From Ignavibacteriota bacterium (GTDB lineage: Bacteria > Bacteroidota > Ignavibacteria > UBA10030 > SZUA-254): DNA of 64,000 nucleotides. A program made the position numbers and the translations under genes. Where the stretch lies: the NCBI GenBank assembly GCA_025358305.1, contig JANYJZ010000030.1:96382-160381 (forward strand), written 5' to 3'. How positions within the stretch are numbered: the stretch's first letter is position 1; every line of letters begins with the position of its first letter. Positions 10,799-58,689 of the stretch are shown in pieces. Under the pieces are notes generated by a model. That model was not told the origin of the DNA. It did not search any database and worked only from the letters and a program-made list of their open reading frames with translations.

Positions 10799-10841
10799 AG
10801 GTTCGTTCGGGGGGGCGGGGCGCTTGATGTCGGAAAGTGGC

Positions 10842-10859
10842 CGTACGGAGCTCCGTACG
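10842..10859. terminator. Perfect 18-nt palindrome between the convergent RND and CDF genes (candidate bidirectional terminator hairpin)
   Basis: cgtacggag/ctccgtacg. There is no T-tract on either side. Confidence 0.35.
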
Positions 10860-10881
10860 CGACGATGGTGCGTGCGGTAGG

Positions 10882-21198: not shown

Positions 21199-21314
21199 GC
21201 GATCCTCTCGTCCCTGAAATGGTGACAACTGCCCCATGGGAGCCCCGTTCGGTCCCATGCTCAGAGGGTACGCGAAGGGCGCCGGAAGGTTGCAGGCGGC
21301 GCCGCCAGGAAGGC

Positions 21315-23684: not shown

Positions 23685-23975
23685 GAGTGTTGACAGGAGC
23701 CCCGGCGTTTGCGCCGGGTACGAATGATGCGGAGGAGTGAGTCGAAAAATATACCAAAGGAGGGTGCAAGAAGCAACACTCGGTCCAAATCCCTGGAGCC
23801 TTGAATCATTTCCCCGCTTTTCGTATGTTAGGTCGGAGCGCGGATCGTACGACATCGCTTCCCCTCCCGGTATCCTCAAATGCTGGTACGATCGCCGGCG
23901 ATCGCGGCGTGTCTGTTATAGAGAGTCGTTGCGTCGGATGGTCTCTCCCACAGAATCAAGGTTTTCTCGCATTCC

Positions 23976-28944: not shown

Positions 28945-28952
28945 TGTGAAAT

Positions 28953-43328: not shown

Positions 43329-45194
43329 TCACCGCAGGAGGAGCATCTTCCCCGTCCTGTGCACCGTTCCGGCTTCGAGCCGGCAGTAGTAGACGCCGGA
43401 GGATCGGTCGTCGGCATGCCATGGGATCCGGTACTCGCCCGGCTGCAGGCGCTCCTCCACGAGCGTCGCGACGCGCCTGCCGAGGAGGTCGTAGACCTGG
43501 AGCCGCACGGACGCCGGGGCGGCGAGCGTGAAAGAGATGACGGTCGTGCTGTTGAAGGGGTTCGGGTAGTTCTGCCGCAGCTGGAACTCCGCCGGCACTC
43601 CCGCACCGGCGTAGGTGACGCCCGTCGGCGAACCGATGAGCGGAAGCTCGATGTACGACGCGCGGTCCGCATCCATGCGGACGGAGACCCCCGTGTTGGC
43701 GAACATTGGTACGACGAATGGGTAGGATCCGAGGTCGATGCGGTTCGTGACGTCGATGTTCGTGAGCTCGACCCGGATCCGGCTGCCGGCCGTGAACCTA
43801 TGCGCGTGGGGGATCCCCTCCGCGAGCACCGAATCGGGGGCGCCGGGGAGCCAGTGTCGTCCCGTGTAATTGATTCTGTTCAAGAAGTACTTGACGCCGA
43901 GCGAATCCACTTCGTAGATCTGCGCGTGGATCGGGAACTTGTCGGTCAAGGGCCGAAGGTAGAGCTTCATCCGCGGCGTCCCGATCCAGGTAAGGTCCGT
44001 AGGAAGGGGCGGTGACTGGAAGACGAGCGAACGGTGCGGGAGCCTTGAATCGAAGAACGAACCGCGGAACCCCTCGATGAAACCGGAATCGAACGTATAG
44101 GTGGAGTCGGTGTAGAGGTTCTCCAGATAGAGCGAGTCGAGGCTCACCGCGGGCGGAGAATATCCGAGCGTGGAATCTGCCCCAAGATAGAATCGGAAGG
44201 GCGCAACACCGACTGGCGGCCAGGAGTTCACTCCGGAGCGCGTCCAGGTGAAATACCCGAGCGAATCCATGGGAAGGCTGCTCGCGGCATACGTGTAGAG
44301 GGGCTCGTCGGTGATCCCATTGTCGGCCCCCTGGAGAAAATGCCCGAGCCATCGCGTCACCTGGTCGTATTGATAGACGCGCTCGGATTCCACGTGGTCC
44401 GAAAAATGGCCGCGGGTTCCGACGTAGACCTTCTTCGGTCCCGCGTACCGGTTGAAGGCTTCGATGCCGTCGTTCGCGGCAAAATAATGGTCCTGCCACT
44501 TGAGGAACCGGAGCGTCGGGACCGATGCGCTGTTGAGGAGCGCGGTATCGACATCCCGGTACGCCGTGAACGTCGACCGAAACGCGTCGTACGCGTCGTC
44601 CCGCAGGAGACTCCAAAGCGTGTCGCGCACCGGGGCATAATGCACGGTAGCAGACTGAAGGAGGAGAAGCACCGTCCGGCGGACCGAGCCGTTCATGAGC
44701 ATGTCGCTCGCCCAGTGCGGGACGATGACGTCCGATGATACCGCCTGGACCGGCAGCCTGTCCGCCGCGGCCCAGAGCCCGTGCAGCCCTCCCTGCGAAC
44801 CGCCGACGATCCCCACCCGCGCGGTGTCGACGCCGGGAAGGCCGCGGAGGAATGCAAGCACCTCGACGAGGTCGGCACGTTCCTGGAGCGACATGATCGT
44901 CGAGTTCCCTGAGGAATTGCCGTGGCCGCGCACCGAATAGCACAGGGTGAGATAACCCAGGCCGGCGTAGATGCTGCCGTTGGCCGTATCCGCATCCTTG
45001 TCGAGCCCGTACCCGTGAACAAAGAGGATTGCCGGAGCGCCGGACGGAGGAAGGATCGCCGGCGTGTAATACGTCGCGTCGAGGCTGTCCCCCGTGGCAA
45101 GCGGAATGAAGAGGTCGTGACGCACCTGCGCCGACAGGGTCGCTGCAAGAAGGAACGCCGCGAGGATGCCGGACAAGCGGATGAAGACGGTCAC
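43329..45194 (-). CDS. S15/CocE-NonD family alpha/beta hydrolase (X-Pro dipeptidyl-peptidase-like) with a C-terminal T9SS sorting domain
   Basis: Signal peptide. The nucleophile-elbow motif is GGSQGG. The C-terminal 80 aa match Por_Secre_tail (NYPNPFNSTTVISF...VYDLLGRRVATLV...SGVYYCRLEAG...KMLLLR). Confidence 0.7.
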   Translation of the reverse strand: MTVFIRLSGILAAFLLAATLSAQVRHDLFIPLATGDSLDATYYTPAILPPSGAPAILFVHGYGLDKDADTANGSIYAGLGYLTLCYSVRGHGNSSGNSTIMSLQERADLVEVLAFLRGLPGVDTARVGIVGGSQGGLHGLWAAADRLPVQAVSSDVIVPHWASDMLMNGSVRRTVLLLLQSATVHYAPVRDTLWSLLRDDAYDAFRSTFTAYRDVDTALLNSASVPTLRFLKWQDHYFAANDGIEAFNRYAGPKKVYVGTRGHFSDHVESERVYQYDQVTRWLGHFLQGADNGITDEPLYTYAASSLPMDSLGYFTWTRSGVNSWPPVGVAPFRFYLGADSTLGYSPPAVSLDSLYLENLYTDSTYTFDSGFIEGFRGSFFDSRLPHRSLVFQSPPLPTDLTWIGTPRMKLYLRPLTDKFPIHAQIYEVDSLGVKYFLNRINYTGRHWLPGAPDSVLAEGIPHAHRFTAGSRIRVELTNIDVTNRIDLGSYPFVVPMFANTGVSVRMDADRASYIELPLIGSPTGVTYAGAGVPAEFQLRQNYPNPFNSTTVISFTLAAPASVRLQVYDLLGRRVATLVEERLQPGEYRIPWHADDRSSGVYYCRLEAGTVHRTGKMLLLR

Positions 45195-47980
45195 CGTAGG
45201 AGCAGGAGCTTCTTTGTTTCCACGAACGCGCCGGAGTGCAGACGGTAGAAATACACGCCCGTTGGAAGGGTCCCGGCGTTCCAGTTCACGCGGTACCGAC
45301 CCGGCGGCATCGGCTCATTGACGAGCACAGCCACCTCGCGTCCCAGGATATCGTAGACGGTGAGCCGTACCGCTCCACCCTCGACGATCGAGAACTCGAT
45401 CCGTGTCTCGGGATTGAAGGGGTTCGGGTAATTCTGCGAGAGCTGATACGTAATCGGAAGATCCTGGACCGGCGGCGCCACCCCCGTCACCGTGCCTGAT
45501 GCCGTCGTCGTCAGGACCGACCCTCCGCTCCCGACCGCGAACCCGTGCGTACTGTCCGTGAAGGTGAGCCCGAAGAGATCGTGCGTATCGGCGCCGTATT
45601 GGGAGTACCAGTGAGTCCCCGCATCAGTGGAGTACCAGATCGCACCGCCGTCGCCGGCCCCATAGATGTGAGACCCGTCGCGTGCGAAGAGCCGGCGGAT
45701 CGTCGCACTCCCCGGTGTGGCGACCGATTGCCAAGGCGAGGCGGTGGAGGCGCGATAAAAGACCTTCCCGCTGTCACCGGCCGCCCAGAGCGCGGAGGAA
45801 TCACTGGGAGCAACTGCGTTGATCGATCCGGTGAGCTCCACGCCCGTTGTGCTCCAACTCAGCCCGCCGTCCGGCGACGAATAGATCGACAATCCACGTG
45901 AAGAGCCCACGCTCAGGATATCATAGCCGCGCGCGGTGAGGCATTGGAACGATTGCGTAGAATCGGCCACGATCGTCGACCAAGTGCCGCCGCCGTCGGT
46001 TGTGCGGAGGATATCGCCGTCGCCGGCAAGATAGCCGACAACAGGACCCACAAAGGCGATCGCGCGAAACGTCGACGTCACACCCAGATCATGGCGAGTC
46101 CACGTCTCGCCGCTATCGGCGCTCTCATACACCGCGCCCGATTGCCCGACCGCCCAGAGCGACGCAGGGGAGAGGTGAAAGAGGCTCGTAAAGATTACAT
46201 TAAAGCCGACGGCCTTCTCCGCCCATGTGGTGCCGCCATCGGTCGTTTTCAGGATCGATCCGTGATCCCCGAGGATCCAGCCGTTCTGCGTTCCCGAGAA
46301 CGTAACGTCATACCATCGCTGCCAGTTGTTCAGGGGCATGCGGAACCACTTCTGCGTGTAGGTCGGCGAGAGTGCGAGCCCGAAATGCTTGCCCGCGCCG
46401 CATTCCTGCTCGGTGACGGAATCGATCGTCGCGATGTTCGCGATGGGGTTGATCACCGACGGCAGCGCCCGGCGCTCCGCGCCGTCGAAGACGAAGCTTC
46501 GCAAGAGCCGTTCATCCTGGACGCCGGTGCCGACCTCGGTCACGTTCGTCGAGACGTCCACATAGGACCACTGGAGGCGCGCGGTGAACGCCGCAGTCGA
46601 GGGGAATGGCACGACCTCCAGCCACCGCCGGATGTATTTTCCGTCCGCCGCGGCGAGCGACGGGGGCATGGAATCGGGGTGCGCCACGACGAGGACGCTG
46701 TCGAGGCCGAACATGCTCGTGAACCAGAGCGTTGCCAGCTGTCGGCCGTCATACGCCACAAAATGATACGGCACGCCGGTCTGCGTGACGGGAAGGGTCA
46801 CGCTGTTGTACTCTCCTGACGGGGGATGGATGAACGTCTTGAGAAGATAGTTTCTCCGCGCGGTGATGAAATACTTCAGGGCGTCGACATGATCATGAAA
46901 GTCCTGGGCCGTCCCCCATTTCCCGGGGTCGTTCTCCGCCGCGGCGGAGACATAGGCCGCGAGGCTGTCGATCCGCGGCAGCATCCTTGCTTCCGTGAAG
47001 ACCGTCTGCAGCACGGTGTCGACCCGGAGCCGGAGCTCCTCCATAAGGCCGGGCGCCGCCATGAACCGGTCCTTGAGTACGCTCGAAGGTCCAGAGAGCA
47101 CCGGGTACGTGTACGCGAATCGGTCGTTGAGAAGGGATGCCGGATACGGGATCGCGAGATCTCCCGACCGTCCGAACGAGATATCGTAATCCCACGGGAT
47201 GACGGTCCACTGCTGCGTGGCGCGCGAGGTGTCGCGGTAGATCGCATAGTTCTTGCTGTAGCTGTCTCCCATCATCATCACGATGTTCCCCGTGAACCAG
47301 TTGAGGATGCTCGGCATGTCGAAATACCGGTCGAGCGTGTCGGCGAACGAGGCGTCAGGAGCAGTGTTGATGGCATGGAGAAGGACACTCAGATCGGAGT
47401 AGTCGGTGCTGCTGCCGACATCTTTCGCATAGTAGAGCTTCAGGATGCTGTCCGGCTGCTCCGTCATGTCCGCATTGTCATAGGTGTCGTCCGCCTCGTA
47501 CACCGGCGCGACGATACGGCCCCGGCGCTGGAAGAAATATTTGTCAAACTTGTCGATGGCGAGGTAGAGCCCGTCGGGCTGGCCGTTCAGGGAGAAAAGC
47601 GCGTGCTCGGCGATCGGAGCCATGTCGTTCATGTCGGCGAAGAGCCCCCATGCGAGGCGTTCGCGAAGGAACGACTTGTCGGTGTACATGGAGTTGAAAT
47701 TAAGGTCCCGCTGGGCATGGTAGAGGTGAGCCGTGGGGACACGCACGCGGAACGATTTCTTCGAATAGTACCGCGTGGAATGGCCCTTGAACCTCACGAG
47801 GGAATTGTTCCAGAGGGAATCGTGCACCGTGAGCGATGCCGGCAGCAGGGAGTCGCTGAAGATGTCCCGAGTGTAGAGAAGCTGGTAGTCGGCCGGGGTC
47901 ATCGTGACCGAATACCGGGTGAGCTGTGCGTGTGCCGGGAGTGAAAGCAACAACAGCACGAACACGAACATGGTCTTCAT
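45191..47980 (-). CDS. CotH kinase-like domain protein fused to BNR/Ycf48-like repeats, with a C-terminal T9SS sorting domain
   Basis: Signal peptide. CotH-family motifs in the N-terminal roughly 450 aa (SKKSFRVRV, LNFNSMYTDKSFLRERLAWGLF). At least six BNR/Asp-box-like repeats (TTDGGTTW, SADSGETW, TTDGGGTW, SPDGGLSW, STDAGTHW). Por_Secre_tail at the C-terminus (NYPNPFNPETRIEF...VYDILGREVAVLV...GVYFYRLHSGAF...KKLLLLR). Confidence 0.6.
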   Translation of the reverse strand: MKTMFVFVLLLLSLPAHAQLTRYSVTMTPADYQLLYTRDIFSDSLLPASLTVHDSLWNNSLVRFKGHSTRYYSKKSFRVRVPTAHLYHAQRDLNFNSMYTDKSFLRERLAWGLFADMNDMAPIAEHALFSLNGQPDGLYLAIDKFDKYFFQRRGRIVAPVYEADDTYDNADMTEQPDSILKLYYAKDVGSSTDYSDLSVLLHAINTAPDASFADTLDRYFDMPSILNWFTGNIVMMMGDSYSKNYAIYRDTSRATQQWTVIPWDYDISFGRSGDLAIPYPASLLNDRFAYTYPVLSGPSSVLKDRFMAAPGLMEELRLRVDTVLQTVFTEARMLPRIDSLAAYVSAAAENDPGKWGTAQDFHDHVDALKYFITARRNYLLKTFIHPPSGEYNSVTLPVTQTGVPYHFVAYDGRQLATLWFTSMFGLDSVLVVAHPDSMPPSLAAADGKYIRRWLEVVPFPSTAAFTARLQWSYVDVSTNVTEVGTGVQDERLLRSFVFDGAERRALPSVINPIANIATIDSVTEQECGAGKHFGLALSPTYTQKWFRMPLNNWQRWYDVTFSGTQNGWILGDHGSILKTTDGGTTWAEKAVGFNVIFTSLFHLSPASLWAVGQSGAVYESADSGETWTRHDLGVTSTFRAIAFVGPVVGYLAGDGDILRTTDGGGTWSTIVADSTQSFQCLTARGYDILSVGSSRGLSIYSSPDGGLSWSTTGVELTGSINAVAPSDSSALWAAGDSGKVFYRASTASPWQSVATPGSATIRRLFARDGSHIYGAGDGGAIWYSTDAGTHWYSQYGADTHDLFGLTFTDSTHGFAVGSGGSVLTTTASGTVTGVAPPVQDLPITYQLSQNYPNPFNPETRIEFSIVEGGAVRLTVYDILGREVAVLVNEPMPPGRYRVNWNAGTLPTGVYFYRLHSGAFVETKKLLLLR

Positions 47981-48130
47981 ACCAACAATCCTCGTTTAAT
48001 AGCAGATCGGTCAGCGCCAAACGTTCGAATCGGTCGATCCCGACCGATCCCACGTTGCACGTCAACACACAATCTACGATATCCCACGAAATTGTGGTGT
48101 GACCGGCATCAGGACACCCGAAAAGGGGCG

Positions 48131-49060
48131 TTATTTCTTCACTGCGCTGTTTTCCACGGGAAAGAGGCTCTTGCCATCGCGTTTCGGGAACGGGAAGCCG
48201 AAGATACCTGCGATCGTCGGAGCGATGTCGATCTGCATATGGCGTTCCGCCACGACCGCCCCTTGGACGAACCCGGGACCCATGCCGAGGAGCATGATGT
48301 GGCGGCACCCCTCGCACGAGTCTCCGTGGTTCTGAAATCCGCCATGGGCCTCATCGTGCCGTCCATGATCGTTCGTCACGAACATCGTCGTTCGCTCGCG
48401 GTAGACGCTGTCCGATTCGATCTTGTTCCAGAGTCGGTAGACGAGCGAATCCGCCCCCCGGATCGCGCTGAGATATGCGTCCCAGTTCTTCGCGTGGCCG
48501 TTCACGTCCACGTCGGGAAAATTGATGATGAGAAGGCGCGGGTGCTCCGTATCCATGACCTTCACGATCTGCCTCCAGGTGGCCGTGTCGCTCGTGGTCG
48601 CCCCTGCGACGAACCGCGCGCCGTAGGCCGATCCGAACGCCGTGTCGACGCTGTGCGTCAGCATCTCGAGCTTCGTCTTCCCGGAGATCACGAAGCACGT
48701 ACTTTCCGGCTGTCCCGTGTATTTCCGGTAGAATTCAAATACCGTCGGGGTCGCGGGGCGGACGCTGCCGTCGTTCGGCATGTCCTGCCAGACGCCTGTC
48801 AGGACGGCGCTGTGTCCGGCGCAGGTCTTCGTGATCCCATCGTTGCGGAAGTTCGTGTAGACCGTCCCTTTCGGCCGGAGGTCGTTCCAGATCCGGGGCA
48901 TGTTCGTCGCGCCCGCACCGAAGGATTCATCGTACCGGGCGCCGTCGATCATGACGATCACGACGTTTTGTGCGAGCCCTGCGGTGGTGACAAGCACAGA
49001 AAAGATCGCGAGGAAAACAAGCGCGCGCGCGACGACGGGTCGGATACGTTTCATGTGCAT
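48131..49060 (-). CDS. Alkaline-phosphatase-superfamily metalloenzyme (phosphodiesterase/sulfatase-like), secreted
   Basis: Signal peptide. VVIVMIDGARYDE is a metal-binding Asp motif, and TNDHGRHDEAHGGFQNHG sits in the second metal site region. The start is set to M34. Confidence 0.55.
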   Translation of the reverse strand: MHMKRIRPVVARALVFLAIFSVLVTTAGLAQNVVIVMIDGARYDESFGAGATNMPRIWNDLRPKGTVYTNFRNDGITKTCAGHSAVLTGVWQDMPNDGSVRPATPTVFEFYRKYTGQPESTCFVISGKTKLEMLTHSVDTAFGSAYGARFVAGATTSDTATWRQIVKVMDTEHPRLLIINFPDVDVNGHAKNWDAYLSAIRGADSLVYRLWNKIESDSVYRERTTMFVTNDHGRHDEAHGGFQNHGDSCEGCRHIMLLGMGPGFVQGAVVAERHMQIDIAPTIAGIFGFPFPKRDGKSLFPVENSAVKK

Positions 49061-49085
49061 CGGAGATGTCCTTTTTGTAGTTATG

Positions 49086-50861
49086 TTATTTCCAGGCCGA
49101 CCGCAGCCAGTCCTGGTAGATGGTCTTCTGGATCTCACTCGGTGATGTACTTCGGACAACGGTACATGCGGGTACCGGCTGGTGGGCCACCGCGACGGTG
49201 AATTCCTGCAAACGGTCGTTCCGGAAGACCGTCAGGATCACCTTCCCGCCGGGCTTGAGTTCCCCGGTCCTGTCGGTGATATCAGCGCTCCTCACCCGAA
49301 AACCGTTGAGTGCCACGACCTCGTCGCCGAGATCGAGTCCCGCCTCATACGCGGGCGAACCGGCAACGACCCTCGTGACCTTCGTCCGGCCGTCCGCATC
49401 GGAGGTCATGAGACCGATCCACGATTTGGCGACGGAGTCGCGCTGCATCACCTTGAGGCCGGCATACGCGAGGACAGACTCCCACGGAAGCGCCTGCGTG
49501 CCGTCGACAAAATCCGAAAAATACTTGCCGAAGTCCTCCCCCGTGACGTCACGGAGCGTGCGGAGAACATCTGATTCGGTATATCCGACACCCAGGGGAA
49601 ACTGTTTGTAGAGGGTCCGGAGGACGTCGTCGAGCGAATGCGCGTTCGCGGTCCTGTGGCGGATCTCGAGATCGAGGAGCATCGAGACGGTCGACCCTTT
49701 GTCGTAGAAATCAGATTCTGTGTTGAACGCCTGCTGCGTCCCGCGGTTGAACTTGATCCACGCATCAAAGCTCGATCCCGACAGCGGCTGCACCGCGTTC
49801 CCCGGCCGCAGTCGGTCCGCCTGCAGCTCATTCTGGAGCATCTCGAGGAACACCTCCGGCGTCCGGAGTCCGGCGCGGACGAGGATGAGTTCGCCGTAAT
49901 ACGACGTCGTCCCCTCGGCGATCCAAAGTTCGGTCGTATAATTCTCTTTCGTATAATCATACGGCGTCATGCCGCGTGGACGGAGCCGCTTGACGTTCCA
50001 GGTGTGGAAATACTCGTGTGACACCACCGAGAGAAATCCCCGGTACGAATCAGCGTTCTTGAAGACGAAGGGCCGAGTGCCGATGACGGCTGAATTCAGG
50101 TGTTCCGTTGCGCCCCCCGAACTCGGCGTACAGTGGATGAGGAAGACGTACCGTCGATACGGCATGTCGCCCCACTGCGACACCGTCGTCCGGATGATCT
50201 TCGTCATGTCCCGGACCAGTGTATCCGCGTCCCAATTGCCCTCGCCGAAGATGCTCAGGACGTGCGGAATTCCGTCGACGTCGAACGAGAAATCCTTCTG
50301 CGTGCCGATCTCCAGGGGGCAGTCGACGAACGTATCGTACCCCGGCGCCGTGAAGGTCGTGCCGATCCCCTCGAGCCCGGTCGTGACGTGCCAGCCCGCA
50401 TAGGGCTTCACCTCGAGGGTGACCGGTAGGGAGCGGTACCGTTCCGCGTAGAGGAACAGGGCGGCCCCGTCGACGAATGCGTGCGCGTCGTTCAATCCGC
50501 GCGTCCGCAGGTTGAACTCGTTTGCGAACACGGTGTAGCGGACCTTCACCTCTTGCGCCGCGCCGCGCGCGACACGCCAGAGCGATTTCTCCACTTTCTT
50601 CCAGGGAAGCGCGTTCCCCTTTCCGTCGACGGCGGAAAAGTCCACCACTCCCCCGGCGAGATCGAGAACGACGTAGCGCCCGGGGCGCCAGGCCGGCAGA
50701 ATGAGATCGAGATCGGCCGGTTCCGCCGGAAGCCGGTCATAGGTCAGCTCGACCTCAAAGAGGTGCGTGGCAGGCTTGGACATGCCGAGCGTATAGCGGA
50801 TGGTCGGTTGTTGCGCGAGGGTCATTGTCGTGGCCGTAAGTAGAATCAGGAGTAGGTTCAT
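49086..50861 (-). CDS. M61 family glycyl aminopeptidase with a C-terminal PDZ domain
   Basis: Signal peptide. The zinc motif HEYFHTWN (HExxH) appears in an M61 context, followed by a PDZ-like segment (GLDLGDEVVALNGFRV). Confidence 0.75.
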   Translation of the reverse strand: MNLLLILLTATTMTLAQQPTIRYTLGMSKPATHLFEVELTYDRLPAEPADLDLILPAWRPGRYVVLDLAGGVVDFSAVDGKGNALPWKKVEKSLWRVARGAAQEVKVRYTVFANEFNLRTRGLNDAHAFVDGAALFLYAERYRSLPVTLEVKPYAGWHVTTGLEGIGTTFTAPGYDTFVDCPLEIGTQKDFSFDVDGIPHVLSIFGEGNWDADTLVRDMTKIIRTTVSQWGDMPYRRYVFLIHCTPSSGGATEHLNSAVIGTRPFVFKNADSYRGFLSVVSHEYFHTWNVKRLRPRGMTPYDYTKENYTTELWIAEGTTSYYGELILVRAGLRTPEVFLEMLQNELQADRLRPGNAVQPLSGSSFDAWIKFNRGTQQAFNTESDFYDKGSTVSMLLDLEIRHRTANAHSLDDVLRTLYKQFPLGVGYTESDVLRTLRDVTGEDFGKYFSDFVDGTQALPWESVLAYAGLKVMQRDSVAKSWIGLMTSDADGRTKVTRVVAGSPAYEAGLDLGDEVVALNGFRVRSADITDRTGELKPGGKVILTVFRNDRLQEFTVAVAHQPVPACTVVRSTSPSEIQKTIYQDWLRSAWK

Positions 50862-50877
50862 GGCTGTCGCACGGATT

Positions 50878-51693
50878 TCAGTGGGAGCGTCTGCCGGCCA
50901 TGTCCATCACGATCGGGGAAACGAACACTGTCTCCGGATTGTCCCGGTGTGCGAGCCAATCCTGGAGCATCGCGTCTCCCTCTTCGGCCGTCAGGACCTT
51001 CTTCTCGACCATGTGGTGGATGTGCACCGTGAAGAACCGGTGCGCCCATTCGAAGACGCCGCTCTTGGTGCCGCCTGCGAGACAGTGCGGAGAATAGTCG
51101 AAGAGCTCGATACCGTGCGCGCGAAAGATCGTCGGGACGCGCGCACCGACGTACGGATCGCCTCCGCCGGAACGCCAGTAGGCGCGCACTGCGTCGGCCA
51201 TCCGGTCGAACGGGCCTCCGCGCGGAAAGAGCGAGAGGCCTTCGTAGACGTAGTCCTGAAGAGCGATCACTCCGCCGGGTTTGAGCGCCCTAAAGAGTGG
51301 TTCAAGGAACTTCTCGGGGGATGGCACGAACCCGATCACCCACCGGGAAAAGATGAGATCGTATGTCTTCTCCGGCAGCTGCGCCGACTCGGACGTGCCG
51401 GGGAGCGTGTGAATGTTCTTCCAATCCCGGCGCTGTGCTTCCCCTTTGAGCCAGGAAAGGTAGAACTCGGAGGGCTCGAGAACGGTCACTTCCCCCTGTT
51501 CGCCGACTCGGTCGCGGAGGTCCATCGCGACGAACCCCGGTCCGCCGCCGACATCGAGGCATTTCCATCCGGGCTTCACGCCCATCCGGTCGAAGAGGCC
51601 CTCGGTGACGTGCTTCCAGACGCCGTGCTGGAACCGGAGGCGTTCCAGCTCGCGCTGGTTGACGCCGAGAAGATAGTCGGGAAGCTGGGCCAT
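50878..51693 (-). CDS. Class I SAM-dependent methyltransferase
   Basis: Motif I is CLDVGGGPGF, followed by an acidic residue after beta-2 and motif II PGGVIAL. Confidence 0.7.
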   Translation of the reverse strand: MAQLPDYLLGVNQRELERLRFQHGVWKHVTEGLFDRMGVKPGWKCLDVGGGPGFVAMDLRDRVGEQGEVTVLEPSEFYLSWLKGEAQRRDWKNIHTLPGTSESAQLPEKTYDLIFSRWVIGFVPSPEKFLEPLFRALKPGGVIALQDYVYEGLSLFPRGGPFDRMADAVRAYWRSGGGDPYVGARVPTIFRAHGIELFDYSPHCLAGGTKSGVFEWAHRFFTVHIHHMVEKKVLTAEEGDAMLQDWLAHRDNPETVFVSPIVMDMAGRRSH

Positions 51694-51698
51694 GGCCG

Positions 51699-53405
51699 CT
51701 ACCGTGCCTTTCGTTTAAGGATGAGGAGCGTCATGTCGTCGAATTGGGGGTGTTTCCCGACGAACTTCCGTACGGTCGAAAGGATCTTTTCCATAAGTTC
51801 GCGCGCGGAGAATTCCCGGTATTTCAGGATGGTCTCCGCGATCCGCTCTTCGCCGAAGAACTCCTCCTTCTTGTTCATCGCATCCGCGACGCCGTCGGAA
51901 TAGATGACGAGCAGGTCCCCCGGCCGGAACGCGATCTCCGACTCTTCGAACGAGAACTCCTCGATCGCCCCGAGGACGATCCCTCCCGTCGACAGACGCT
52001 GCACAGGGTTCTTTTCCGAGTGAAAATACGGGTTATCGTGGCCCGCGTTGGAGAAGACGAGGCGGTGCGTCCGCGTATCGAGAATGGCGTAGAAGAGCGT
52101 CACGAACTTGTCGATGCTCGTGCTCCTGTGAAGGAGCTTGTTGGAGCGCGAGAGGCACTCCTTCACGCTCACGCCGGGATACGTCTGGCCGCGGAGCGTC
52201 GCCTGGAGGTTTGCCATGAGGAGTGACGCCGGAAGACCCTTGCCGGAGACGTCGCCGAGGCAGACCGCCCACTGATGTTCGTCGACCGGGATGTAGTCGA
52301 AGTAATCTCCGCCGACCACCTGCGCCGGGATGGACGTTCCCGCGACGTCATAGCCGGCGATCTCCGGATGGACCTTCGGGAGGAGATCCGCCTGGATGCG
52401 CGCGGCGAGCCGCACCTCTTCGCGCATTCGGTGGTATGCCTTCTCTGATTCGTAGAGCCGAGCGTTCTCGATGGCGATCGAGGCATGTATCGAGAGGGCA
52501 TTGATGAAGTGTTCGTCGTCTCGGGTGAAGTCGCCCTTTTGCTTGTTGAGGAGCTGCAGGACGCCGATGATCTTGTCATCCTTGTTCTTCATCGGCATGC
52601 AGAGGATCGTCCGCGTGTGGTACCCGGTCTTCTTGTCGAACTCCGGGTTGAATCGCGAGTCAAGATACGCGTCGGAGATGTTGAGCGTGTCGCCCGACGC
52701 CCCGACGTATCCTGCGATACCCTTCCCGAGCGGGAGGCGGATCGTCACGAGTTCCGATCCCCGCAAAACCTTCGACCAAAGCTCCTTCTTCTTTTCGTCG
52801 AGGAGGTAGAGCGTCCCTCGGTCGCCTTCGACGATCTTGAGTGCCGTGTCGAGGATGAGGGAAAGGAGCTTGTCGAGGTCAAGAGTGGAGTTCACGACCT
52901 TCGCCGCCTCGTTCAGCTGCTCCATATGGCGAAGCTCGACGATGGCCTTGCGCGACGAGCGTTCGAGCTCGTTGATGAAATAGGTATTGCTCGACCGGAG
53001 GCGGAGGCTCATCATCTGCATGAGCCGGATGGTGAACGGATGGCTAGCCTGGAGGAGGGCGTCAAAATCGTCCTTGTGGAGCGTAAAGACGACGCAGTCT
53101 TCCATCGCGACGACGCGCGCCGAGCGGGGACGCCCGTCGACCATCTCGAGCTCGCCGAAGAAATCCCCTTCGTGGAGAAGGGCGAGCATGTTCTCTTCGC
53201 CCGACCTCGTCCTCTTGACGATCTTGACGCGGCCGGCAGTGATGAGGTACAGCTCCATTCCCTCGCTCTCGTCCTCCAGAATGACGTCGTTCTCATGGAA
53301 CTTGCGTTCCTTGAGCTTCGGCTTCAGGGTCTGGAAGGCGTCGTCGCTGAGGTCCTCAAAGAGGATGTTCAGCCGGAGCCTGTCGAGGGAGGAAATGGGT
53401 TTCAT
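51699..53405 (-). CDS. Cyclic-nucleotide-binding domain + GAF + PP2C/SpoIIE-type protein phosphatase
   Basis: The N-terminal CAP-like cNMP domain reads FGELEMVDGRPRSARVVA. A GAF domain follows. The C-terminal PPM/SpoIIE motifs are GDYFD, GDVSGKG, FSNAGH and VIYSDG. Confidence 0.8.
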   Translation of the reverse strand: MKPISSLDRLRLNILFEDLSDDAFQTLKPKLKERKFHENDVILEDESEGMELYLITAGRVKIVKRTRSGEENMLALLHEGDFFGELEMVDGRPRSARVVAMEDCVVFTLHKDDFDALLQASHPFTIRLMQMMSLRLRSSNTYFINELERSSRKAIVELRHMEQLNEAAKVVNSTLDLDKLLSLILDTALKIVEGDRGTLYLLDEKKKELWSKVLRGSELVTIRLPLGKGIAGYVGASGDTLNISDAYLDSRFNPEFDKKTGYHTRTILCMPMKNKDDKIIGVLQLLNKQKGDFTRDDEHFINALSIHASIAIENARLYESEKAYHRMREEVRLAARIQADLLPKVHPEIAGYDVAGTSIPAQVVGGDYFDYIPVDEHQWAVCLGDVSGKGLPASLLMANLQATLRGQTYPGVSVKECLSRSNKLLHRSTSIDKFVTLFYAILDTRTHRLVFSNAGHDNPYFHSEKNPVQRLSTGGIVLGAIEEFSFEESEIAFRPGDLLVIYSDGVADAMNKKEEFFGEERIAETILKYREFSARELMEKILSTVRKFVGKHPQFDDMTLLILKRKAR

Positions 53406-53428
53406 GGCAGGCCTTCGCCCTCACTGCG

Positions 53429-54187
53429 TCAGCCGAAGTTCCTGCCCGTGACGACCTGGTACCCCGTGACAGCCATGTCGTCGCTCGTCGTGGAATGCGC
53501 TTTTGTCTCTTTTTCGAGCTGCATCTTCCACTGATATACTCCTGAAAACGTGTGGGCAACCTTTTCGGTGAGCGATTTGAATGAGCCGCTCGCCTCATAC
53601 TTCTCGGCGTCGTGCAGGCTGTTCCAGATCGTGAGGGAGATGGGGTGATCTGGGTCGTTCGCGTTCTCGGTGAGGGCGGCGTAGAGGCAGCCTTCCGCAG
53701 CGCGCAGGACCGGGATGACCTCCTCGTTGAAAACGCGCTTGAACTCATCGATCTTACCGGGGCGTATCTGGGGAGAGACGATGCGGACGAAGAGCGGCCC
53801 GACGCGGCGCTTCGGCATGATGGCCGAGACCCTTTTTTCGGCGATGCTGTACGCTTGGACGACGGGTTCCACCGGAACCGGTTCGTACTCCAGGACGTTG
53901 TCCTTCGAGAGATGAAGGCGCCACTCGGAGGTGCCGGCAAGGTAGGGCTCGGCGCCCTTGAGGAGCTCGGCGAAGACGCCGCTCTTCTCATAGGCCTCCG
54001 CGTGCTGCGGCGTCTCCCAGAGTGTGAGAGAGATGTACTCATTGTCGTCGCGTACGCTCTTCGTCAGGCCGACGTAGAGGCATCCGGGCGTCTCTTGCAG
54101 CCTCGGAATGACGTTGCGCTCGTAGTTCTCCTGAAGCTCGGCAACCCTTCCAGGGTTGGCCGTCACTTGGAGCATTCGCATATGCAT
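53429..54187 (-). CDS. Tandem ABM (antibiotic biosynthesis monooxygenase-like) domain protein
   Basis: Two repeats of about 100 aa with the ABM pattern (...PGRVAELQENYERNVIPRLQETPGCLYVGL...LTLWETPQHAEAYEKSGVFAEL, and ...PGKIDEFKRVFNEEVIPVLRAAEGCLYAAL...LTIWNSLHDAEKYEASGSFKSL). A 35-aa C-terminal tail follows. Confidence 0.6.
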   Translation of the reverse strand: MHMRMLQVTANPGRVAELQENYERNVIPRLQETPGCLYVGLTKSVRDDNEYISLTLWETPQHAEAYEKSGVFAELLKGAEPYLAGTSEWRLHLSKDNVLEYEPVPVEPVVQAYSIAEKRVSAIMPKRRVGPLFVRIVSPQIRPGKIDEFKRVFNEEVIPVLRAAEGCLYAALTENANDPDHPISLTIWNSLHDAEKYEASGSFKSLTEKVAHTFSGVYQWKMQLEKETKAHSTTSDDMAVTGYQVVTGRNFG

Positions 54188-54302
54188 GGCCGTATCTCCT
54201 TATGAAAGACAGAGCCGAACAGAGCCGTCGTTCCGAGGCTCTGCGGCAGGATACTCTTCTCTGAACACTGTTTTCCGTTTCTCCGACCGCACGCGGGAAC
54301 GC

Positions 54303-55589
54303 TTACGCGTCCGGTTTACGCTTCACCACGATAATGGTCATGTCGTCCGACTGCGGCGTGCGCCCGGCGAACGACTTCGCGGCACTGATGATCGTATCGA
54401 TGAGGTCGATCGGCGACAGATGGTGGTTCTTCACGAGAACCTCCGTGAGCCTCTCCTCCCCGTACAGCTCCTTCTCCGCGTTCATCGCCTCGGGAATGCC
54501 GTCGCTGTAGACGACGACGGTGTCTCCCGGCAGAAGCTGGACCGCGGCCTCTTCGAACGGGAAGTGCTCCATGATCGAAACGACGATGCCTCCGGTCGGC
54601 AGGCGGACCGGCGCCTTGCCTTCGGAGAGAAGGAACGGATGGTCGTGGCCTGCGTTGCAGTACACGAGCTCGTGCTTCTTCGGGTCAAGGATGCTGTAGA
54701 ACAGCGTGACAAACTTCTCCGGACTCGTGCTCTCGAAGAGGAGCTTGTTCGACCGCACGATGACGTCCCGGGCCGTCGCGTTCACGAGCGTCTGGCCCCG
54801 GAGCGTCGCCTGGAGATTCGCCATGAGGAGGGATGCCGGAAGGCCCTTGCCGGAGACGTCGCCGAGGCTCAGGGCGATGCGGTCCCCGTCCATCGGGATG
54901 AAATCGAAGTAGTCGCCGCCCACCATCTGCGCCGGGATGCTTCTCCCGGCGATCTCGTAACCGGCGATGTCGGGAAACTTCTTCGGGAGGAGCTCCAGCT
55001 GGATGTTGGAGGCGAGGCGGACCTCCTCCTGCATGCTGATGAGCGATTTTTCGGACTCGTAGAGACGGGCGTTCTCGAGGATCTGACCCGATTGCGCGGC
55101 GATGATGGAGAGCAGGCGCTTGTCGTCCTCGCTGAATCCCGCGCCGTCCTTTTTGTTGAACACGGCGAGGATGCCGATGAGCCTGTTCTTCACGAGGAGC
55201 GGGACGCAGAGAAGCGACCGAATGTCGCCGTCGCCTTTGACGCCCGTGAATCGCGGGTCGTTCGAGAGGTCGTTCGTCAGGAGCGCCTTCTTATTGATCA
55301 TCATCCAGCCGAGGATATTCTGGTTGATGTGGAACTGCTGGTGGTTCGTCGTCGAGTTTTGGGCGCGCACAAGGGTCTTCATCTCCGTCGGCGCCTCCTC
55401 GTCGACGAGCGTGATCATGCCCTGCTGGCCCTGCGCGGTGCGCACGGACCGCTTCACGACATGATCGATGACCGTATCGAGGTTCATCGTCGAGCTGATG
55501 ACGCGGGCGAGCTCGTTCAGGATCGAGAGTTCGTCGACGGCCTTCCGAAGCCGGACGTTCTCCTCCTGGAGTTGTACTAATGGGTCCAT
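54303..55589 (-). CDS. GAF + PP2C/SpoIIE-type protein phosphatase (paralogue of 51699-53405, without the cNMP domain)
   Basis: GAF domain followed by GDYFD, GDVSGKG, CNAGH and VVYSDG. It is about 55% identical by eye to the C-terminal two-thirds of the upstream paralogue. Confidence 0.8.
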   Translation of the reverse strand: MDPLVQLQEENVRLRKAVDELSILNELARVISSTMNLDTVIDHVVKRSVRTAQGQQGMITLVDEEAPTEMKTLVRAQNSTTNHQQFHINQNILGWMMINKKALLTNDLSNDPRFTGVKGDGDIRSLLCVPLLVKNRLIGILAVFNKKDGAGFSEDDKRLLSIIAAQSGQILENARLYESEKSLISMQEEVRLASNIQLELLPKKFPDIAGYEIAGRSIPAQMVGGDYFDFIPMDGDRIALSLGDVSGKGLPASLLMANLQATLRGQTLVNATARDVIVRSNKLLFESTSPEKFVTLFYSILDPKKHELVYCNAGHDHPFLLSEGKAPVRLPTGGIVVSIMEHFPFEEAAVQLLPGDTVVVYSDGIPEAMNAEKELYGEERLTEVLVKNHHLSPIDLIDTIISAAKSFAGRTPQSDDMTIIVVKRKPDA

Positions 55590-55693
55590 AGTATGAGCTT
55601 TCGATCGAGAAAGGTGACTGCGAGAACGGAAAATGGATGAAATAATGTAGAAAATACCGACTCAAAACACAACACCGGGTGCTCCTGCACTCC

Positions 55694-56824
55694 TCAGGAT
55701 GCCCTGTTCGCGGCCAGGCGACGGTAGACATCCTCCACTACATCCACCATGACACCGGTCGTGAAGCGCCGGAGGAGGAGTTCGCGGCTCCGCGCCCCCA
55801 TCGCGGCGATGCGCCCGCGGTCAGAGAAGAGCTCGCCGAGGGCCCGGGCGAGCGCTTGTGGATCCCGGTCCGCCACGGCAAAGCCGTTGACGCCCTCGGT
55901 CACCATCTCCGCGACGTCCCCGACCTTGGTCACGACGACCGGCAGCTCCTGGGAGAGCGCCTGCAGCACGGCGAACGGAAATGTCTCTCCGCCCCCTTCG
56001 ACGGACGAGTGGCAGTAGATGTCGAACGCGGAATAGACAGCCGTGAGATCGTCCCGGAAGCCCGCGAAGGAAACGAGCGGCCCGACCCCAAGTTCCTGCG
56101 AAAGACGGCCAAGCATCTCTCTGAGCTCTCCGTCGCCGATGAGGAGGAGGCGCGCGGAACTCTCGCGCTTCGAGACGTGCGCGAAGGCCCTCAGGAGGTA
56201 CTCCTGTCCCTTGAACGGCACGAGCCTGCCGACATTGCCGACGACGACATCGCCTGGAGCGTAGCCGAATTCCGCCCGGACAGCTTCCCGGAGACGGGGA
56301 TCGCGCTTCATCGCTTCGGGGTCGACGCCGAGGTGGACGACCGAGATCTTCGACGGCGCGATCCTGTCCTCCCGCACGAGAAGGTCCTTCACGCAGACGC
56401 CGTCGACGAGGAAGTGCTCCGTCGCCCAGCGGTTGCGAAACATATGGGTAAGGTTGTGGCTGATCGAATGGAAGCTATGAACGTTCGTCACGTGCTTCGC
56501 GCGTTCCAAGAGGGCGGCGAAGGCGCCGGCAGTGCGGTCGTAGTTCGTGTTCGTGTGGACGATCGCGATGCGGTGCTCACGAACGAGCGAGCGGAGGATG
56601 CCGACGTACTTCGCGAGCTCTCCGTTCGGGGGGAAGTTCACGCCGATCGTCGGGACGCCGGCTGCGGCGCACTTCTTCGTCAGGAGGTTCCCCGGCGGAC
56701 AGGCAACCCAGACCTGGTGTCCTCGCTGCATCAGGGAGGCCGAGAGCTCCAGGACGTAGAATTCCCCGCCCGCATAGAGGGAGGAGGAATTCGTCAGAAG
56801 GATGTTGAACGGCGCGCTCGGCAT
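55694..56824 (-). CDS. Glycosyltransferase family 4 (GT-B, group 1)
   Basis: The N-terminal Glyco_trans_4 region and the C-terminal Glycos_transf_1 region carry the EX7E-like motifs (SSVEGGGETFPFAVLQALSQELPVVVTKVGD). Confidence 0.75.
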   Translation of the reverse strand: MPSAPFNILLTNSSSLYAGGEFYVLELSASLMQRGHQVWVACPPGNLLTKKCAAAGVPTIGVNFPPNGELAKYVGILRSLVREHRIAIVHTNTNYDRTAGAFAALLERAKHVTNVHSFHSISHNLTHMFRNRWATEHFLVDGVCVKDLLVREDRIAPSKISVVHLGVDPEAMKRDPRLREAVRAEFGYAPGDVVVGNVGRLVPFKGQEYLLRAFAHVSKRESSARLLLIGDGELREMLGRLSQELGVGPLVSFAGFRDDLTAVYSAFDIYCHSSVEGGGETFPFAVLQALSQELPVVVTKVGDVAEMVTEGVNGFAVADRDPQALARALGELFSDRGRIAAMGARSRELLLRRFTTGVMVDVVEDVYRRLAANRAS

Positions 56825-56914
56825 GGGGCGTAATGTAAGAAATCAACCGGTGAAAGAAAAAGGCGCCCTTCCACGCTGCCGGGGAAGGGCGCCTGAAGCT
56901 GCTTCGCGAACCCG

Positions 56915-57322
56915 TTACTGCTGCTTGCCGTACACCAGAGCGGCGATGACGCCGAGGATGATGTACTGGATGAGTCCGTAACAAAACCACTGGATGGCTA
57001 GCGCATACGGGATCGGATAGACCGCGTAGGAATCATATGCCATCGGGATGGCGACCATCATGCCCACATAAAAGCCGTACCGCAGTCCTTCGCCGATCCC
57101 TTTCCCCAGATACCCCTTGGAGAAGATGAGGGTGAAGAAGTAGGAGAACACGAGCGCGGTGACGAAGTGCACCCACACCATCGCATCGGCTGCCGGGCGC
57201 ATGATCTTCGCCACGGCGTCCGTCTGGTAGATCGCTCCGAGGAGACCGACGTGGATCACAAAGTTGAGAATGTTCATCGCGATATACACCGCGAGAAACG
57301 TCATCAGAAATTTCTTATTCAT
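56915..57322 (-). CDS. Hypothetical small integral membrane protein (4 predicted transmembrane helices)
   Basis: 135 aa with four hydrophobic segments. No family recognised. Confidence 0.45.
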   Translation of the reverse strand: MNKKFLMTFLAVYIAMNILNFVIHVGLLGAIYQTDAVAKIMRPAADAMVWVHFVTALVFSYFFTLIFSKGYLGKGIGEGLRYGFYVGMMVAIPMAYDSYAVYPIPYALAIQWFCYGLIQYIILGVIAALVYGKQQ

Positions 57323-57399
57323 ACCTACACCTCCTGTAGTATGTGAGAAAGTGACCTGCCGCCGGTTCGATTGTACAAAAGAATAGGCCGAATGTCAAG

Positions 57400-58185
57400 C
57401 TAGTCCCGCTCGTACTGCGCCGGCTTCCGGTCCCGGAAGAGGTCGTTCCACTCGTTGATCGATTTTCGGCGTGAAAGCATGAGATCGACCTCCCGGACGG
57501 CGATCCCCGGTTCCCGCTCGCCGAGCCGGCAGAGGATCTCGCCGCGAGGGGTAACGATCTCGCTCTTCCCGATGAACGAGAGCGAAAGCCCTCCCCGGTC
57601 CTCGGTGCCGATGCGGTTCGCTGTCGCGCTGAAGACGCGGTTCTCCAGGCAGCGCGTCACCATGGCGTCGGGGCAGTGGGGCATGACGAGGTTCGACGGA
57701 TGGGCAATGAGGTCGGCGCCCCGCAGGGCAAGGGAGCGCGCGCTTTCCGGGAAAAGCCAGTCGAAACAGACCATCATGCCGACATTCCCGAACGGGAGAG
57801 GAAAGACCGGAAAGCCGAGGTCTCCGGGAGCGAAGAGCGTGGTTTCCTTATGATAGAGATGCACCTTCCGATAGAGGCCTACGAGGCCCTGCGGCCCGAC
57901 AAGGGCCGCGGCATTGAACGGCACGTCCGCCTTCTCGGCGAACCCGTAGACCACGAAGCAGTTCCGCTTCTTCGCAAAGCCGGAGAGGGCCTGGAACGTC
58001 GGTCCGGTCGGCGGCTCGGCGAGGAGCGCGGCCTCCTTCGGGTCGGTAAAATTGTACCCGGTGTTGAAGAGTTCCGGCAGGACGAAGAGATCGGCGATGG
58101 TTCCCTCCATGAGCGAGAGTGCCTCACGGACGTTCGCGGCGGGTTCACCAAAGGCTGGATCGGTCTGTACGATGGCAAGATGCAT
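57400..58185 (-). CDS. Carbon-nitrogen hydrolase (nitrilase superfamily)
   Basis: Catalytic Glu (VLPELF), Lys (YRKVHL) and Cys (MMVCFDWLFPE) lie in the canonical order. 261 aa. Confidence 0.8.
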   Translation of the reverse strand: MHLAIVQTDPAFGEPAANVREALSLMEGTIADLFVLPELFNTGYNFTDPKEAALLAEPPTGPTFQALSGFAKKRNCFVVYGFAEKADVPFNAAALVGPQGLVGLYRKVHLYHKETTLFAPGDLGFPVFPLPFGNVGMMVCFDWLFPESARSLALRGADLIAHPSNLVMPHCPDAMVTRCLENRVFSATANRIGTEDRGGLSLSFIGKSEIVTPRGEILCRLGEREPGIAVREVDLMLSRRKSINEWNDLFRDRKPAQYERD

Positions 58186-58245
58186 GGCGTTATCTCGTCA
58201 AATGGGGCATGATGGATGAGATGGAAATGCGTCTGAAGAAACCTC

Positions 58246-58274
58246 TTGCTATTCGCGGGGAATAGTTGTATGTT
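58246..58274 (+). promoter_or_regulatory. Sigma-70-like promoter for the cold-shock gene, with a long 5' leader
   Basis: TTGCTA, a 17-nt spacer, then TATGTT. The implied leader is about 205 nt, consistent with the long csp 5' UTRs seen in other bacteria. Confidence 0.35.
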
Positions 58275-58368
58275 AGTACTGCAATCAACAGTACACCGTT
58301 GTTTCGCTTTTAAGATCTTGCTGATGTACCGTTCGCACTCCGTGTGGATTTGAGTGTCACCAGCTGTC

Positions 58369-58420
58369 GAAATCGCAATTCATGGTCGCTTTGAAAGCCA
58401 TGGTTGCGATTTGTCGTTTT
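58369..58420 (+). promoter_or_regulatory. Terminator-like hairpin followed by a T-rich tract inside the csp leader (candidate attenuator or thermosensor)
   Basis: gaaatcgcaattcatgg-[12 nt]-ccatggttgcgattt is a 15-16 bp imperfect stem, followed by gtcgTTTTaag and lying 66 nt upstream of the csp ATG. A Shine-Dalgarno sequence (AAAGGA) sits 7 nt before the ATG. Confidence 0.4.
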
Positions 58421-58485
58421 AAGAGCTTACCATCTGGGCGTACACTTCCCGCAAGGGATCATCAAATCAAAGAAAGGATTGTTCT

Positions 58486-58689
58486 ATGGAAAAAGGAACA
58501 GTCAAATGGTTCAACGGAGCAAAAGGCTTCGGTTTCATCTCACGCAATAGTGGCGAAGATGTGTTCGTTCACTATCGGTCCATCACCGGCGACGGCTACA
58601 AGAGCCTGAACGAAGGTGACACCGTTGAATTTGACGTCGAGACGGGTCCGAAAGGACTCCAGGCGGCAAACGTGACGAAGGCCTCCTAA
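58486..58689 (+). CDS. cspA: Cold-shock protein (CspA family)
   Basis: 67 aa. The RNP1 motif is KGFGFI and the RNP2-like motif is VFVHY. The N-terminus [18 protein letters not shown] is canonical. Confidence 0.95.

Follow-up and report, generated by a model that had tools for sequence, protein, structure and literature searches.

A standalone tandem-ABM protein encoded between two GAF-PP2C phosphatases is a probable component of a conserved Ser/Thr phospho-signalling module in Ignavibacteriota

A 64,000-nucleotide stretch of the contig JANYJZ010000030.1 from an Ignavibacteriota bacterium (hereafter the window) contains three consecutive genes, encoding a GAF-PP2C phosphatase (phosphatase B), a standalone tandem-ABM protein (ABM2) and a second GAF-PP2C phosphatase with an additional cyclic nucleotide monophosphate (cNMP)-binding domain (phosphatase A). 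The three genes are best read as a conserved Ser/Thr phospho-signalling module in reduced form, with ABM2 as the constant member of the module. Across approximately 100 loci of uncultured bacteria ABM2 nearly always lies beside Ser/Thr kinases or phosphatases, and it is linked to three classes of Ser/Thr signalling enzyme in at least two phyla. It is very likely that ABM2 is functionally coupled to these enzymes and it is probably an undescribed component of a phosphorylation switch. A full-text literature search returned no paper tying ABM-domain proteins to partner switching, RsbW, STAS, PP2C or Ser/Thr kinases, and the system combines a signalling logic that is known with a conserved tandem-ABM component that is undescribed.

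The open reading frames (ORFs) of all three genes lie exactly where a preliminary description of this DNA had placed two GAF-PP2C phosphatases bracketing a tandem-ABM protein, and their domains are confirmed by Pfam (Table 1). The genes are co-directional and operon-like, with spacers of 115 bp between those for phosphatase B and ABM2 and 23 bp between those for ABM2 and phosphatase A, and the ATG of ABM2 is preceded by an AGGAG ribosome-binding site. A promoter and terminator scan of 48000-58500 gave nothing exceeding shuffled expectation and the RNA fold of the 115 nt spacer was no better than that of shuffles (z -0.06).

Phosphatases A and B both belong to the PF07228 family (scores of 165.7 and 166.7 bits, cutoff 25, over the full-length profile, 1-191/192), the SpoIIE/PP2C domain occupying residues 375-565 of A and 234-424 of B and the GAF domain residues 176-312 and 35-172 respectively. 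The extra N-terminal cNMP-binding domain reported for one paralog is found in phosphatase A (residues 33-120, 81.5 bits), where a canonical phosphate-binding cassette, FGE...RSA, can be read from the sequence. The proposed paralogy is likewise upheld as the two proteins are 45% identical across 418 aa (E 8e-129) and their alignment has the motifs GGDYFD, LGDVSGKG, NAGHD, YSDG and DDMT in both. The Asp residues coordinating metal in PPM phosphatases lie in the motifs GDxxD, GDVSGxG, SDG and DD(M/I)T. All of these metal-binding motifs are intact in both A and B (GGDYFD, LGDVSGKG, YSDG, DDMT), and for this reason both are, on sequence grounds, probably active enzymes. The nearest solved relatives of phosphatase B are a Pseudomonas response-regulator PP2C (3es2/3eq2), Rv1364c and SpoIIE, and its orthologs in related genomes share 58-82% identity. 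Phosphatases of the SpoIIE/RsbU type abound in environmental bacteria, and for B alone 3640 close homologs were found. To our knowledge the substrates of such phosphatases are mostly unknown outside the Firmicutes and a few model species, and a conserved standalone partner that is not a STAS protein would bring a new fold into the partner-switching paradigm.

In order to place ABM2 within known families we combined Pfam, structure prediction and fold searches. ABM2 matches the ABM family PF03992 in two stretches (78.1 bits, cutoff 23.1). A word-indexed search found 97 homologs, nearly all of 245-254 aa. Clustered at 50% identity, the matches of an exhaustive profile search make up at least 150 clusters at E<1e-30 and 300 at E<1e-10, and these are either of ~250 aa or fragments, none of them fused to another domain. 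The AlphaFold2 model, with a mean predicted local distance difference test score (pLDDT) of 81 and a predicted template modelling score (pTM) of 0.74, has two ferredoxin-like halves followed by a helix (216-228), a low-confidence loop (228-236) and a final strand (238-250). The C-terminal tail to which the preliminary description drew attention is real, being conserved across the family as this helix, a loop with a Thr-Ser (TS) motif and the strand. Foldseek against the PDB gave as best matches the tandem-ABM structures 3mcs, 3f44 and 5f9p, PenE and sulfur oxygenase reductase (E ~1e-9, identity 7-13%), so that ABM2 models as an ABM pseudo-dimer and not as a STAS domain. The choice between a STAS-like and an ABM fold that had been left for checking therefore falls to ABM by Pfam, model and Foldseek alike, with no STAS match, and a cryptic STAS identity for ABM2 was rejected. 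A sequence search of the PDB gave only marginal matches for ABM2 (E >= 0.17), with IsdI, HmoB and MhuD at E 0.3-0.9, and the IsdG/IsdI/HmoA-type heme oxygenase label that some sources attach to its homologs was also rejected, NCBIfam IsdI scoring 20.8 bits against a cutoff of 200.

This fold raises the question as to whether ABM2 might be a ligand handler, that is an oxygenase or isomerase that needs no cofactor, or a sensor of small molecules or redox state, which makes, destroys or presents the signal of the GAF domains or kinases, or else an allosteric regulator. Its fold matches are tandem-ABM enzymes (the putative monooxygenases 3mcs/3f44, the anthrone-oxidase-like 5f9p, PenE and sulfur oxygenase reductase), each barrel of ABM2 has invariant residues (G35-C36/G166-C167, S53/S184, W57/W188 and Y66/Y197) and the adjoining phosphatases have GAF small-molecule sensor domains, all of which would be consistent with such a role. 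However, the genomic linkage also holds for kinases of the TPR or PD40 types that lack GAF domains and for bare RsbW-like kinases, ABM2 has no conserved neighbours of a redox or biosynthetic kind and the protein is not a heme oxygenase of the IsdG/IsdI type, and we consider a ligand-handling role improbable. The tandem-ABM enzymes (3mcs, 3f44, 5f9p and PenE, 9kdp) share the two-domain architecture with ABM2 at template modelling scores of 0.57-0.74 but differ in their low sequence identity, in coming from metabolic or polyketide contexts or being uncharacterised, and in lacking the C-terminal helix, TS loop and strand that ABM2 adds.

To look at gene neighbourhoods we scanned one genome per species with a 9-sequence ABM2 alignment, which gave 64 loci (numbered with the prefix L), mostly from Ignavibacteria, Kryptoniota and Bacteroidota metagenome-assembled genomes (MAGs) with a few from Acidobacteriota and one from Rhodothermales; counts are given over 63 loci. 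Six-frame ORFs of these loci were annotated using profiles made from the window proteins and from the kinases and STAS proteins of related loci. The recurrent same-strand order is a GAF-PP2C phosphatase, in some cases a STAS protein, ABM2, in some cases a 110-aa protein, one to six Hanks kinases and sometimes a cNMP-GAF-PP2C phosphatase. A PP2C gene lies within the contiguous same-strand cluster at 42 loci and a Hanks kinase gene at 38, with both present together at 32, and 53 of the 63 have one or the other within 10 kb. STAS genes are in the cluster at 20 loci and a PP2C gene without STAS occurs at 23. The window-type architecture with two phosphatases was seen at five; a counterpart of phosphatase A follows ABM2 in L001, L008, L016, L075 and L117 and follows ABM2 and one or more kinase genes in L007 and L009. 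Within 2 kb upstream of ABM2 (122 kb summed) we counted 39 PP2C genes, as against 3 in the following 376 kb, an enrichment of more than 40-fold, and for STAS genes the corresponding numbers were 18 and 1. Precomputed Pfam annotation of independent contigs concurs with this pattern. The co-occurrence of PP2C with tandem ABM domains, which had been put forward as a check, is thus found in dozens of species, and the alternative that ABM2 is a monooxygenase accessory protein with no PP2C association is not borne out given its linkage to PP2C, Hanks and RsbW-like kinase genes across phyla.

Ten loci have neither a PP2C nor a Hanks kinase gene within 10 kb. Three of these, L065-L067 from Acidobacteriota, have a 164-aa HATPase_c_2 gene 4-16 bp upstream of ABM2, the product of which matches PF13581 at ~100 bits and has RsbW and SpoIIAB as its best NCBIfam matches. 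A metagenome scan seeded with Acidobacteriota sequences found the RsbW-like/ABM2 pair again in L071, L072, L073 and L106 and in reversed order in L074, together with many further PP2C-ABM2 and ABM2-kinase loci. At L084 a STAS protein, an RsbW-like kinase and a PP2C phosphatase are encoded divergently from ABM2, STAS and a kinase, and HATPase_c_2 genes adjoin ABM2 homologs only at this locus and in the Acidobacteriota-type clade. ABM2 can be paired with a kinase only (L038, L044), a phosphatase only (L008, L016) or an RsbW-like kinase only, and its adjacency to these enzymes is kept while gene order, with the kinase up- or downstream, and outer flanks differ. ABM2 thus has three kinds of neighbour (PP2C phosphatases, Hanks kinases, RsbW-type kinases) in varied order and with varied flanks, a pattern to be expected of a physical partner of Ser/Thr signalling enzymes and not of a passenger gene.

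A reading in which there is no functional link, and ABM2 is a syntenic passenger or a co-transcribed housekeeping gene next to abundant signalling genes, could draw on the origin of most loci in one broad lineage (Ignavibacteria, Kryptoniota and Bacteroidota MAGs) whose gene order was possibly inherited, on the richness of these genomes in kinase genes and on the locus L116, considered below, which is without ABM2. It is difficult to reconcile with the steep fall in PP2C density past 2 kb, with outer flanks that vary between loci, with an adjacency retained while gene order is shuffled and with the occupation of the neighbouring position by a different kinase superfamily in another phylum, and we regard it as highly implausible.

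STAS proteins are the textbook substrate of the SpoIIE/RsbU-type phosphatase family. The preliminary description had reported no STAS protein, anti-sigma factor or sigma factor in the window, and none is detected there by Pfam or by hidden Markov models (HMMs) of relatives. Pfam analysis of ~45 plausible ORFs spanning the whole window gave no STAS, HATPase_c_2 or sigma-70/ECF domain, HMMs of the STAS and RsbW-like proteins of related loci had no match at E<=10 among all window ORFs of at least 45 aa, and ~7 kb of contig past the right end of the window contains no STAS, anti-sigma or sigma gene. The canonical combination of a STAS protein, an RsbW-type kinase and a sigma factor with PP2C is therefore not found in the window, where the only sigma-related gene is that for a GAF-sigma54 activator (27496-29166).

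From this absence ABM2 had been taken as the only candidate partner of the two phosphatases. The linkage itself stands but the argument for exclusivity is weakened, since a STAS gene lies beside ABM2 at almost a third of the related loci; by the same token the lack of STAS in the window is no proof that the phosphatases have no STAS substrate in this organism, as the canonical substrate is part of the wider module and may have its gene in another part of the genome. The STAS proteins encoded at related loci belong to PF01740, carry a VDSSG phospho-site motif and are usually encoded between the phosphatase B ortholog and ABM2. The order PP2C-STAS-ABM2-(small protein)-kinase is present in 17 species loci, with STAS-ABM2 gaps of -75 to +121 bp, most of them below 40 bp.

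The main rival reading is a partner switch centred on STAS, in which the phosphatases would act on a STAS protein encoded elsewhere and ABM2 would be an unphosphorylated target or effector, replacing the sigma factor or comparable to SiaD of the SiaABCD system, and bound or released by STAS or the kinase. The order in the 17 loci parallels rsbU-rsbV-rsbW-sigB, the succession of an RsbW-like gene and ABM2 in Acidobacteriota mirrors that of rsbW and sigB, and L084 has a full set of STAS, RsbW-like and PP2C genes divergent from its ABM2 genes. The phospho-site motif of the PF01740 proteins is consistent with such a switch, the characterised proteins nearest to the phosphatases (a Pseudomonas response-regulator PP2C, Rv1364c and SpoIIE) have STAS proteins as their targets (PMC11418112) and partner switches with non-sigma outputs are known (PMC7647112, PMC13555669). 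Against it, two thirds of ABM2 clusters have no STAS gene, as is the case for the window and the 7 kb beyond it, no STAS was detected within 6-10 kb of the kinase-only and RsbW-only pairings and the conserved TS loop of ABM2 is left without explanation. We think a STAS-centred switch rather unlikely: as the linkage persists without STAS, a direct partnership between ABM2 and the enzymes is favoured over a STAS-dependent one.

A possible site for such a partnership is the loop between the C-terminal helix and the final strand of ABM2. Among 90 unique homologs Ser or Thr is found at position 234 in 96% and at position 235 in 97%, followed by E/D and then D, while the loop positions that precede T234-S235 vary. 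Residues 228-236 are the sole segment of the model with pLDDT <50 and the TS motif lies at its end. We infer that this loop could be a phospho-acceptor. In the reading that we favour ABM2 would be a switch protein on which kinases and phosphatases converge, being phosphorylated at the T234/S235 loop by Hanks-type kinases (or by RsbW-type kinases in Acidobacteriota) and dephosphorylated by the two flanking SpoIIE/RsbU-type phosphatases. Two inputs could be integrated in this way, a GAF ligand through phosphatase B and a cyclic nucleotide together with a GAF ligand through phosphatase A, and the phosphorylation state would alter what ABM2 binds or catalyses. That ABM2 is the direct substrate in a phospho-switch of this kind is a serious possibility although one that we advance with reservation. 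More tentative again is the suggestion that ABM2 might found a new class of phospho-switch, a tandem-ABM substrate of SpoIIE/RsbU-type phosphatases and of Hanks and RsbW-type kinases that acts in place of or alongside STAS, with many sensors converging on one TS loop. The large kinase arrays of Ignavibacteria and Kryptoniota would then have in ABM2 a concrete substrate or target open to testing, and the ABM superfamily, whose members are usually labelled monooxygenases by default, would gain a member with a regulatory role.

Hanks kinase genes come right after ABM2 in relatives, and in the window the kinase of this scheme would be unlinked. There is no Hanks kinase gene adjoining the PP2C genes of the window cluster; the nearest Pkinase gene lies 28 kb off and encodes a Hanks-type Ser/Thr kinase with TPR repeats (Table 1). 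Its product aligns over its full length with the ABM2-adjoining kinases of relatives at 31-34% identity and is a candidate for the unlinked kinase of the ABM2 module. The inventory of signalling genes given previously was right as to the phosphatases but missed the kinase side, both the Hanks arrays in relatives and the Pkinase-TPR gene of the window. Two ORFs with PD40 repeats, 20227-21750 and 19285-20226 with TGAATG at their junction, come after the Pkinase-TPR gene to form a minus-strand block at 19285-23879, and together with it they resemble the kinase-PD40 fusions adjoining ABM2 in L004. Downstream of ABM2 in L012, L018, L023, L027, L058 and others, up to six paralogous Hanks kinase genes stand in tandem on the same strand, coding for proteins of 700-1100 aa with C-terminal TPR or PD40/Tricorn beta-propeller repeats.

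Several observations weigh against the reading of ABM2 as a directly phosphorylated member of the module. When sampling was done from the phosphatase side, with five phosphatase B homologs chosen for long contigs only, ABM2 was within two genes of the homolog in just three (L117, L118 and L120); L119 has a kinase nearby without ABM2, and at L116 a phosphatase B ortholog of 72% identity with the same upstream synteny has no adjacent ABM2 or kinase. At this locus an MFS transporter, an ECF sigma factor and HEAT-repeat and DUF4097 proteins replace ABM2 and phosphatase A (6001-11407). Between the same genomes phosphatase B is 70-75% identical and ABM2 only ~50%. No ABM2-kinase or ABM2-phosphatase fusion was found among the 150 best family representatives, and at seven loci the available flanks contain neither a kinase nor a phosphatase gene. 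The RsbW-linked clade has a shorter and different loop in which the TS motif is changed, and the ABM2 of L064 has I-E at positions 234/235; this may be a constitutive or phosphomimetic-like variant. The L064 gene (10001-10777, from a Rhodothermales MAG) sits in a PP2C-STAS-kinase-ABM2 cluster despite the I-E at these positions. Finally, a STAS protein with a DSSG phospho-site adjoins ABM2 in 20 of the 63 loci, and as STAS is the usual substrate of these phosphatases ABM2 could lie downstream and not be a substrate itself.

In its working the module resembles a partner-switching or Hanks-kinase/PP2C system, with both likenesses to and differences from the known examples. With RsbU-RsbV-RsbW-sigmaB and SpoIIE-SpoIIAA-SpoIIAB-sigmaF of Bacillus subtilis it shares a sensor-bearing SpoIIE/RsbU-type PPM phosphatase and operon-like clustering, to which relatives add a phosphorylatable STAS protein encoded directly after the phosphatase and, in Acidobacteriota, an RsbW-like kinase beside ABM2. 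Unlike these modules the window has no STAS protein, RsbW-type kinase or sigma factor, the kinases of the main lineage are of the Hanks type and often arrayed, and the constant partner is a tandem-ABM protein of unrelated fold. The closest precedent for a non-sigma switch is SiaABCD of Pseudomonas aeruginosa, where the opposing activities of a kinase and a PP2C phosphatase set the threonine phosphorylation of a small switch protein, which governs a non-sigma output by partner switching (PMC7647112, PMC8457831). SiaC is similar in fold to anti-sigma-factor antagonists (PMC7647112), unlike the modelled ABM pseudo-dimer of ABM2, and beside ABM2 there is no conserved output gene such as one for a diguanylate cyclase. 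The combination of Hanks kinase, STAS and PP2C in the fuller ABM2 clusters has a precedent in PknD-Rv0516c of M. tuberculosis, where a Hanks kinase acts on a STAS protein (PMC1847690), but that system involves no ABM protein and the ABM2-linked kinases carry TPR or PD40/Tricorn C-termini and occur in tandem arrays. In HenR-All4160 of Anabaena a SpoIIE-type phosphatase controls a non-sigma target via phosphorylation, the target being a STAS domain fused to a glycosyltransferase (PMC13555669); a glycosyltransferase gene likewise lies directly upstream of phosphatase B in the window, although its product has no STAS domain.

Table 1 Positions of the ABM2 cluster, its domains and motifs and related features in the window
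Feature	Positions	Strand	Basis
Phosphatase B, GAF-PP2C, 428 aa	54303-55589	minus	ORF list and Pfam
Phosphatase B, GAF domain	~55074-55487	minus	Pfam
Phosphatase B, SpoIIE/PP2C domain	~54318-54890	minus	Pfam
ABM2, standalone tandem-ABM protein, 252 aa	53429-54187	minus	ORF list and Pfam
ABM2 loop T228-D237 (TKAHSTTSDD)	53477-53506	minus	translation
ABM2 T-S-[E/D]-D motif (T234-S235-D-D), candidate phospho-acceptor	53477-53488	minus	translation and conservation
Phosphatase A, cNMP-GAF-PP2C, 568 aa	51699-53405	minus	ORF list and Pfam
Phosphatase A, cNMP-binding domain	~53046-53309	minus	Pfam
Phosphatase A, GAF domain	~52470-52880	minus	Pfam
Phosphatase A, PP2C domain	~51711-52283	minus	Pfam
Pkinase-TPR Hanks-type Ser/Thr kinase, 854 aa	21315-23879	minus	Pfam
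Glycosyltransferase (GT4), directly upstream of phosphatase B	55694-56824	same strand as cluster	Pfam; no STAS domain

A conserved protein of ~110 aa with the motifs GGWFD, GCTWGGSAIK and EFGN is encoded at 26 of the 63 loci, either directly after ABM2 or between PP2C and ABM2 (for example L018 10774-11118 and L012 9566-9973). This protein, apparently one more uncharacterised component of the module, matches nothing in Pfam, NCBIfam or PADLOC, and a search of the window did not find it. PADLOC also gave no defence-system match for ABM2, phosphatase B or the STAS proteins of relatives, and membership of a defence system was rejected as the only matches obtained were to generic cNMP and kinase domains.

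The same-strand flanks of the cluster encode, by Pfam, the GT4 glycosyltransferase, a methyltransferase and an M61 peptidase. None of the three is a constant neighbour of ABM2, the methyltransferase being absent from L001 and both it and the glycosyltransferase from L002; outside the window the glycosyltransferase was seen only in L001 and L116. The GAF-sigma54 activator gene lies on the minus strand and encodes an enhancer-binding protein with GAF, sigma-54 interaction and HTH_8 domains, the third GAF-domain regulator in the window. Also on the minus strand are genes for a CotH kinase-like protein with BNR/PSII_BNR repeats and a Por secretion tail of the type IX secretion system (T9SS; 45191-47980) and for an adjoining S15 peptidase with a Por tail (43329-45194), a pair that recurs downstream of the ABM2 cluster in L001. 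A cold-shock protein (CSD, 67 aa) is encoded at 58486-58689 by the sole plus-strand gene in an otherwise minus-strand block.

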